Positions 33,665 to 33,797 of a stretch of 64,000 nucleotides of DNA are shown here, one piece after another. The translations under genes and the position numbers were made by a program. How positions within the stretch are numbered: position 1 is the first letter of the stretch; each line of letters begins with the position of its first letter. The notes under the pieces were generated by a model, which was not told the DNA's origin, searched no databases, and worked only from the letters and a program-made list of their open reading frames with translations. This DNA is from a virus. The DNA lies in the IMG/VR virus record IMGVR_UViG_3300023110_001943, positions 1 through 64,000 of that record; one strand, given 5' to 3'.

Positions 33665-33797
33665 TGTGTGATGAGAGCAAGGATAACTCGGCTCCAAATG
33701 AGGAGGTAGCATCATACAAAACTGAGAAGGAGATGAAGAAACAGAAACGATTTCGGCTCCGCAAGAGTAAGGAGGTAGCCTTCTCAGTATTTTTTTT
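33665..33797 (+). ncRNA. Tandem pair of structured RNA motifs (unidentified)
   Basis: Two units P1-AGA..CGGCTCC-loop-GGAGGTAG-P1' whose P1 stems differ in sequence but are each complementary. Confidence 0.55.

Follow-up and report, generated by a model that had tools for sequence, protein, structure and literature searches.

Since T4, the tRNA clusters of phages have been known to hold extra small stable RNAs without an explained role. The T4 RNAs rnaC (species 1, 139 nt) and rnaD (species 2, 119 nt) are non-coding, structured, and encoded in the sense orientation within the tRNA cluster; the T4 annotation places them side by side next to tRNA-Arg, and they are presumably freed from the tRNA precursor. 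The two tandem elements described here, unit 1 and unit 2, share these properties: they are structured, do not code for protein, and run in the same direction as the tRNAs of the phage array that contains them. They are also paired beside a tRNA-Arg and presumably leave the precursor in the same manner. However, the units are hairpins of 54–68 nt, whereas rnaC and rnaD are longer RNAs, the former with a terminal T-arm like that of a tRNA. Unlike the T4 RNAs, the elements reported here have a defined internal-loop core and a varying copy number. Homology to rnaC or rnaD was rejected, as model R2 has no match in the T4 locus (L232) and no likeness is apparent by eye. By analogy, the element resembles the species 1 and 2 RNAs of T4, but it belongs to no described family.

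Tandem arrangement is also a property of other structured RNAs. Known type III antitoxin repeats (ToxI and the pseudo-ToxI of phages) are tandem structured RNAs that act by binding proteins, and they share with the units the organization as tandem phage RNA units whose number varies between relatives. Identity of the units as a type III antitoxin was rejected: they are of unequal length (54 and 68 nt), their stems differ, tRNAs flank them, and there is no toxin gene on their 3' side. The neighbouring ORFs have no toxin-like match in Pfam or PHROG. Glutamine-I riboswitches are often tandem as well. The glutamine-I riboswitch (glnA RNA, RF01739) has been reported in marine myophages (PMC9004378). 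The units have no match to RF01739 at E-values of up to 10, and their conserved nucleotides differ from those of the riboswitch. Furthermore, glutamine-I riboswitches are located in the 5' UTRs of nitrogen genes, whereas four of the five element types described here lie between tRNAs.

The tRNA array and its two tandem elements

The window, which is the whole stretch of 64,000 nucleotides that was analysed, comprises the first 64 kb of a 141.5-kb IMG/VR contig. It has a G+C content of about 30%, and its long ORFs are all on the + strand. The phage is a myophage with genes for a baseplate wedge, an endolysin, and a virion protein. A related baseplate protein is encoded by at least 598 viral contigs, and the nearest GenBank phages are distant, with amino acid identities of 43% (Microcystis phage Mel-JY01), 39% (an uncultured phage assembly), and 38% (Flavobacterium phage immuto). 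The surroundings of the tRNA array (30672–31526, 28983–29726, and 37722–38396) encode a GH6-family glycoside hydrolase (Pfam E 9e-51), a sulfotransferase-like protein, and an Asp/Asn hydroxylase-like protein. The segment that contains the units is organized as follows.

33350..33366, + strand: promoter-like box TTTTCGTATATTTGTAT, found by eye, 5' of ORF54 and the tRNA array
33398..33562, + strand: ORF54, 54 aa, just 5' of the tRNA array
33572..33658, + strand: tRNA-Leu(UAA), called by ARAGORN and Rfam, no encoded CCA
33665..33718, + strand: unit 1, between tRNA-Leu and tRNA-Arg, 68.3 bits with model R3
33721..33788, + strand: unit 2, between tRNA-Leu and tRNA-Arg, 64.3 bits with model R3
33790..33797, + strand: T-run (A, then eight T) 3' of unit 2, variable, outside the conserved element
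33803..33877, + strand: tRNA-Arg(UCU), called by ARAGORN and Rfam, first of three downstream tRNAs (Arg, Lys, Met)

The initial annotation, made from the sequence alone, had described two tandem units inside a tRNA cluster. The sequence agrees with the description base for base, and both ARAGORN and Rfam place tRNA-Leu(taa) and tRNA-Arg(tct) on either side. Each unit is built from a closing helix, P1, and an inner helix, P2.

Unit 1, order of segments: TGTGTGATG, AGA, GCAAGGATAACT, CGG, CTCC, AAATGA, GGAG, GTAG, CATCATACA
33665–33673 with 33710–33718: P1 of unit 1, 9 bp, one G-U pair
33674–33676, AGA; 33677–33688, loop with AAGGA; 33689–33691, CGG
33692–33695 with 33702–33705, P2; 33696–33701, P2 loop; 33706–33709, GUAG
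Unit 2, order of segments: ACTGAGAAGG, AGA, 20 nt, CGG, CTCC, GCAAGAGTAA, GGAG, GTAG, CCTTCTCAGT
33721–33730 with 33779–33788: P1 of unit 2, 10 bp
33731–33733, AGA; 33734–33753, 20-nt loop; 33754–33756, CGG
33757–33760 with 33771–33774, P2; 33761–33770, P2 loop; 33775–33778, GUAG

The closing stems of the two units are unrelated in sequence, with differences at seven positions, and both pair. The core AGA..CGG-CUCC..GGAG-GUAG is identical in both units, and four nucleotides separate the inner hairpin from the closing stem. The core pattern CGGCTCC-N-GGAGGTAG matches only the two units within the window, where 0.00 occurrences are expected from shuffled sequences, and these two occurrences are the only ones in the whole 141.5-kb contig. 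Unit 1, with 23.6 bits and an E-value of 2.5e-4, is the only sequence in the 64 kb, apart from unit 2 itself, to which a covariance model constructed from unit 2 alone gives a significant score. Covariance-model alignments were used throughout the comparison instead of MAFFT, which misaligned the two units. The minimum-energy folds of units 1 and 2 contain both helices, and their folding energies are modestly better than those of shuffled sequences, with z-scores of -2.3 and -2.2.

Folding z-scores of only about -2 and the narrowness of the family would be expected if the units had no function and had arisen by duplication on a local scale or by fortuitous pairing within a spacer rich in A and T. 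This explanation is barely credible and is largely refuted: the E-value of the model-based match and the pattern controls speak against chance, and a phage with an identity of only about 70% has homologues with compensatory stems.

Several other identities of the units were rejected. They are not tRNAs, because they lack a cloverleaf recognized by ARAGORN or RF00005 and instead have two helices with P2 loops of 5–10 nt. No complementarity that could form a pseudoknot between the loops was found by eye. A terminator scan near unit 2 detected only a weak alternative hairpin (AGGAGG/CCUUCU). The T-run that had been noted after unit 2 is present in the window; however, it is not conserved, as it is missing in L209, L218, L236, and L237. 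An intrinsic terminator was rejected, since the U-run is absent from these four loci and after all the elements of the second phage described below.

The promoter-like box upstream of ORF54 has near-identical counterparts (ATTTCGTATATTAGTA), also recognized by eye, in two contigs of the second phage, G006 and G007, where they precede a tRNA array and a gene leader, respectively. In its appearance, the box TTTCGTATATTTGTA 5' of ORF54 and the array resembles a promoter of the Bacteroidota type. The sigma-70 scan did not detect the box at 33350..33366.

Copy number and sequence variation among close relatives

ORF54, which has nine homologues with identities of 81–100%, was used as a handle to fetch the same locus from relatives of the phage. 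Together with a scan for the variable arm of tRNA-Leu, the ORF54 homologues provided the locus from about 20 metagenome contigs. The spacer between tRNA-Leu and tRNA-Arg contains two units in the window and in L218, L219, L233–L235, and L237, and only unit 2 in L221 and L236. In L227–L229, it is reduced to seven to nine A (seven in L227 and L229) without any element. This polymorphism of presence and copy number is found within both types of tRNA-Leu. The occurrence of zero, one, or two copies among close relatives indicates that the function of the element is accessory rather than core.

Sequence changes in the units are confined to a few places. The G-U pair in P1 of unit 1 is replaced by A-U in L219, and every other substitution among the variants affects either the P2 loop, the base that precedes CGG, or one of the two free positions on the 3' side of AGA. 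Seven T of the T-run are deleted in L209, L218, L236, and L237, and the run has other lengths in L233, L235, and L221. The sole mini-ORF in the units loses its start codon in L221 and L236, where the ATG at 33733 is changed to ATA. The indel of seven nucleotides in the T-run and the presence or absence of unit 1 disrupt every reading frame, and the element is therefore not coding. A small protein gene was rejected on the same grounds, namely that the ATG at 33733 is not kept and the frame is shifted by the 7-nt indel.

Unit 2 is 95.6–100% identical across four lineages, in which identity decreases to 79% for tRNA-Leu, 84% for tRNA-Arg, and 87% for ORF54. The 10-bp stem of unit 2 has accumulated zero compensatory changes across lineages where the stems of tRNAs did change, and mosaic breakpoints occur on either side of the units. 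The near-identity of unit 2 within diverged flanks would fit strong constraint and recent exchange or horizontal spread equally well.

The polymorphism at a single spacer, the mosaic breakpoints around a near-identical unit 2, and the three different genomic contexts in which elements are found would all be accounted for by a selfish or recombination-prone element, that is, a mobile hairpin residing beside tRNA genes or a handle for the exchange of tRNA modules. Nevertheless, this origin appears quite improbable. There are only two or three copies per genome, all of them in sense orientation, and they show no visible target-site duplication or conserved terminal sequence. P1 differs between copies and includes a G-U pair, and it is the interior of the element that is conserved, as in functional RNAs, rather than its termini. 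The units have no gene for a transposase or an endonuclease beside them. For similar reasons, a MITE- or REP-like hairpin was rejected: there are two copies in 141.5 kb and three in G006, in the sense orientation only, with differing termini and no duplication seen at the junctions.

Three further element types in a second phage

The final scan of viral contigs with the pattern GAGA-N-CGGCTCC-N-GGAGGTAGC produced 21 matches, three of which have closing stems of 8–9 bp, whereas the other 18 have at most 2 bp. The three stem-bearing matches are located in contigs G006 (107 kb) and G007 (252 kb), which share 97 kb at 99.99% identity. The nucleotide identity of G006 to the window phage is 68–77% over the structural genes. 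G006 and G007 represent another uncultured marine myophage, which carries three further types of the element, named a, b, and c.

Element a occupies the spacer between tRNA-Leu(UAA) and tRNA-Arg(UCU) in G006, the same position as that of the units in the window. It was found not by the exact-core pattern but by a covariance model with the filters switched off (30.8 bits, E 8e-8), and it scores 48.7 bits with model R3. Element a is composed of the stem GGAGAGGGG/CCCCUCUCC, AGA, an insert of about 90 nt that is predicted to fold on its own, UCGG, the inner stem CUAC/GUAG, and GUAG. Its inner stem includes a compensatory change from C-G to A-U, while AGA, UCGG, and GUAG are kept. Element b (stem UGUGUAGUG/CACUACACA) is located 3' of the tRNA-Arg that follows element a. 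Element c (stem UGAUGAUG/CAUCAUCA) is in a leader and ends 10 nt before the start codon of an ORF of 95 aa. Three distant homologues were fetched by a pattern that required the exact core, so that their core identity is partly by construction.

The last 10 kb of G006 (97240–107496), which include a ten-tRNA array and elements a and b, have no counterpart at that place in the 252-kb contig G007. Chimeric assembly is one possible cause of this difference, and variability of the tRNA island is another. The 144-nt spacer between element b and tRNA-Ser in G006 (L256:3936–4079, - strand) has a long closed fold of its own (-38.7 kcal/mol, z -2.5) with a 10-bp stem, AAAAAGAAGG/CCUUCUUUUU, and GGGUAG directly preceding the 3' strand. 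The spacer may be distantly related to the element, or it may contain a separate RNA.

Consensus fold and covariation

The five element types have one architecture with the consensus P1(8-10 bp) AGA NN RAGRR N(5-90) CGG CUMC N(5-10) GKAG GUAG P1'. The closing helix of 8–10 bp is free in sequence, the asymmetric internal loop, with AGA to CGG on its 5' side and GUAG on its 3' side, is strongly conserved, and the 4-bp inner helix CUMC/GKAG is capped by a free terminal loop. Base pairs were counted in model alignment A6, which contains 10 distinct sequences of the five element types. In this alignment, 94.3% of the cells are paired, versus 36–55% when the partners are slid. Changes on both sides of a pair are found in 8 of the 10 pairs of P1, and one pair of P2 is changed from C-G to A-U. 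The covariation score is reached by none of 500 shuffles. The alignment was fitted to the structure model; the stems can also be read straight from the sequences. Since there are only five element types from two phage lineages, the covariation rests on few independent events.

The proposal of a conserved RNA fold in the initial annotation is borne out by the homologues from the second phage, which keep AGA, CGG, GUAG, and both helices while having new closing stems. The covariance-model search of phage contigs, set beforehand as a test of the fold, recovered homologues in which covariation is present. The description of the conserved nucleotides as a junction holds in part. A three-way junction fits the longer, 5'-expanded versions; however, in three of the five types the corresponding region is an unpaired internal loop. 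Because the 5' stretch of the short versions is predicted to be unpaired, their shape is a stem, an asymmetric internal loop, and a stem. In the GUAG and AGA strands, GUA faces GA beside P1, and these nucleotides could adopt an S-turn similar to that of 5S rRNA loop E or the sarcin-ricin motif.

Three resemblances of short segments of the element were examined and rejected. UGAUGA, which is reminiscent of a C/D-box RNA, is merely the junction of P1 with AGA in some copies. Similarity to a CRISPR repeat amounts to one 16-bit match at E 2.8, and P1 is variable. A role of GGAGG as a Shine-Dalgarno sequence was rejected, since in element c it is at a distance of 21 nt from the ATG, and element a has GUAGG instead.

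Association with tRNAs and tRNA-shaped RNAs

All five element types are in sense orientation relative to the flanking tRNAs or ORF. Four of the types lie between tRNAs, and each copy adjoins a tRNA or, in the case of element c, a tRNA-shaped RNA named motif X. The gap to the preceding tRNA or tRNA-shaped RNA is 3–7 nt in four of the five types and 3–35 nt overall. The gap to the next tRNA is 7–14 nt in the Leu/Arg spacer, and overall it ranges from 7 nt up to over 140 nt. Motif X, an RNA of 75 nt, is positioned 3–5 nt 5' of element c and was located at the following places.

L269:15862–15942 (G007): motif X, cloverleaf-shaped
L285:1335–1412: motif X, cloverleaf-shaped
L285:1416–1496: motif X, cloverleaf-shaped
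L286–L294: motif X, likewise

In motif X, a closing stem of 7 bp carries three arms: a small one with the loop UUAAGAGAAA, one of 5 bp with the 7-nt loop C(U/A)(U/A)CCAG, and another of 5 bp with the loop GGCRGUU. Covariation between three versions is seen in all of its stems, and single as well as tandem copies are found in the leader of the 95-aa ORF. ARAGORN does not call motif X as a tRNA, and no Rfam family matches it. Its possible identities are a mimic of tRNA and an aberrant gene resembling tRNA-Gly.

The 95-aa ORF has very many homologues (at least 245), and the element is absent upstream of the ORF in all 20 homologue loci that were fetched. The slot of element c is filled by a second motif X in ten of these loci (L285–L294) and by a tRNA-like sequence in L295, and it contains no structured insert in L299. 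The slots thus also accept other folded RNAs, and the element is an optional module. Positions beside tRNAs and their look-alikes serve as points of exchange between RNA folds. The leader slot of L295 (positions 1248–1500), and also that of L296–L304, contains a different insert ending in a tRNA-like T-arm and acceptor (GAGGGTTCGAGTCCCTC); the insert of L295 has no tRNA or tmRNA detectable by ARAGORN and no Rfam match. In all 20 loci (L285–L304), the 95-aa ORF and a 59-aa ORF are followed on the 3' side by about 650 nt without a called gene, at about 1960–2600. This region contains no tRNA in L285, L290, L295, and L299, and has no Rfam match in L285, L295, and L299. It may be another non-coding RNA region.

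A ligand-sensing aptamer that resembles a riboswitch, single or in tandem, and controls downstream expression was also considered. The small size of the element, its highly conserved internal loop between helices of free sequence, the tandem arrangement in the window, the position of element c 10 nt before a start codon, and the U-run 3' of unit 2 with the alternative AGGAGG/CCUUCU hairpin would suit such a regulator. However, four of the five types have tRNAs and not ORFs on their 3' side, many relatives as well as G006 lack the U-run, and no Rfam riboswitch model matches. The 20 homologues of the 95-aa ORF without the element indicate that regulation of this gene by the element is not conserved. 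Control of expression by an aptamer is thus considered a poor prospect.

The constant vicinity of tRNAs or motif X would fit a cis-acting role, in which the element would serve as a hairpin for processing or stability, such as punctuation, an end-cap, or a self-folding spacer that guides or blocks ribonucleases on the polycistronic transcript of the tRNAs or the leader, and would have no role once excised. It also agrees with this role that the element in G007 occupies the place of the second motif X in L285 and L290. Nevertheless, some 20 invariant nucleotides in the loop would be superfluous in a plain spacer, and the distances to the ends of neighbouring tRNAs are not fixed. Furthermore, the same two tRNAs are only seven A apart in L227 and L229, and therefore their processing does not need the element. 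A purely cis-acting function is possible but somewhat unlikely.

A processing boundary would also be a plausible site for a self-cleaving ribozyme of a new class, which could help to cut the tRNA precursor or the leader. Small self-cleaving ribozymes are common in the intergenic regions of phages, and the size of the element and its layout, in which two helices enclose a conserved internal loop, are typical of them. However, the element does not match the hammerhead, twister, pistol, hatchet, hairpin, or HDV models, no sequence feature marks a cleavage site, and the flanking tRNAs already supply sites for RNases P and Z. Self-cleavage is very unlikely.

Distribution of the family

The initial annotation did not assign the motif to a family, and the Rfam and Infernal searches concur, as they find no matching family even at E-values of up to 10. 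When the 4227 models of Rfam 15 were compared with the window, only tRNAs reached the gathering score. Searches with the units, elements a–c, and motif X at E-values of up to 10 produced only chance-level matches of 8–16 bits, far below gathering, which include C/D-box snoRNAs and CRISPR-DR47.

The large collections were scanned by exact patterns only. Among prokaryotes, represented by one genome per species, the strict pattern has no matches, and the loose pattern has 125 chance matches to the core, none with a closing stem; they have at most five flanking pairs each, versus 8–10 in true members of the family. In viral contigs, the exact-core pattern has at least 120 matches, with no closing stem among the matches listed. 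Patterns that join the core to a neighbouring tRNA have no matches, and neither does the pattern of the tRNA-Leu 3' end in viral contigs. BLAST searches of GenBank phages with the units and with motif X plus element c returned chance matches or none. The neighbouring proteins of 281 and 252 aa have no relatives in viral contigs, and more distant homologues of the 252-aa protein are encoded in loci without a tRNA array.

Searches with the covariance models detected no element in nine other related contigs (five long and four more). The lone 14-bit match in the four further contigs was rejected, as it is inside an ORF and lacks the core. The models likewise had no matches in two cultured phages, Microcystis phage Mel-JY01 and Flavobacterium phage immuto, in an uncultured phage assembly of 484 kb, and in 151 Bacteroidota genomes. 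The weak matches L086 and L243 were rejected because their closing stems are unpaired. The whole-genome search missed one true copy of 45 bits in G006, and its negative results are therefore weak. A more distant relative of the phage (G003, 168 kb, 96% complete) has a 139-nt spacer between tRNA-Gly and tRNA-Glu (L207:708–846), which contains a closed hairpin (TGTGAG...CTCACA) and GAUGGUAGG, and does not match the element model.

Proposed function of the element

The units belong to a genuine family of small structured RNAs that is uncatalogued, accessory, and narrow in its distribution, with members placed among the tRNAs or tRNA-like RNAs of a single group of marine, uncultured myophages. Recognition by a partner is suggested by the combination of helices whose sequence is free and a loop in which about 20 nucleotides are fixed. 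The best explanation of the element, with a probability of roughly 0.4, is an excised structured RNA that would act as a surface for protein recognition, either as a decoy or as a handle. The uniform orientation of the copies and the G-U pair in P1 of unit 1 support action at the RNA level, on the sense strand. As judged from its position, the element is probably released by tRNA processing. It would be transcribed together with the tRNAs from the upstream phage promoter, and RNase P would cut at the 5' end of the next tRNA, while RNase Z or trimming would act at the 3' end of the previous one; CCA is not encoded by the tRNAs. The gaps of 3–7 nt to the preceding RNA in four types, and of 7–14 nt to the next tRNA in the Leu/Arg spacer, would fit such an excision. 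The freed element may persist as a hairpin RNA of 55–140 nt, the ends of which would be shielded by the closing helix. The invariant purine-rich internal loop could then present the recognition surface to a host or phage protein.

In a broader proposal, which is speculative and unlikely to hold in full, the element would be one of a set of interchangeable RNA modules of phages that also includes motif X and other folds, transcribed from early promoters and excised by tRNA enzymes. The element would constitute a new class of functional RNA, namely a protein decoy against a host defence or translation factor, a new aptamer, or a new small ribozyme, with the S-turn-like loop as the active part. 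If the loop does bind a host protein or metabolite, it would represent a new RNA-based interaction between phage and host. The element is a compact and well-defined example of the RNAs that accompany phage tRNAs: its covariation is clear, its invariant loop is amenable to mutation, and variants with zero, one, or two copies exist in nature. It provides a tractable handle on passenger RNAs in an abundant, uncultured group of marine myophages.

The tRNA region of the window has another feature in common with that of the second phage. The 11-mer AACTATCGTTC flanks an ORF between tRNA-Glu and tRNA-Thr in the window (44373–44383 and 44792–44802, the second copy being the reverse complement). It is also found 3' of tRNA-Ser in G006 (L256, about 3838–3849, - strand), which indicates that this 'panhandle' end is conserved between both phages.
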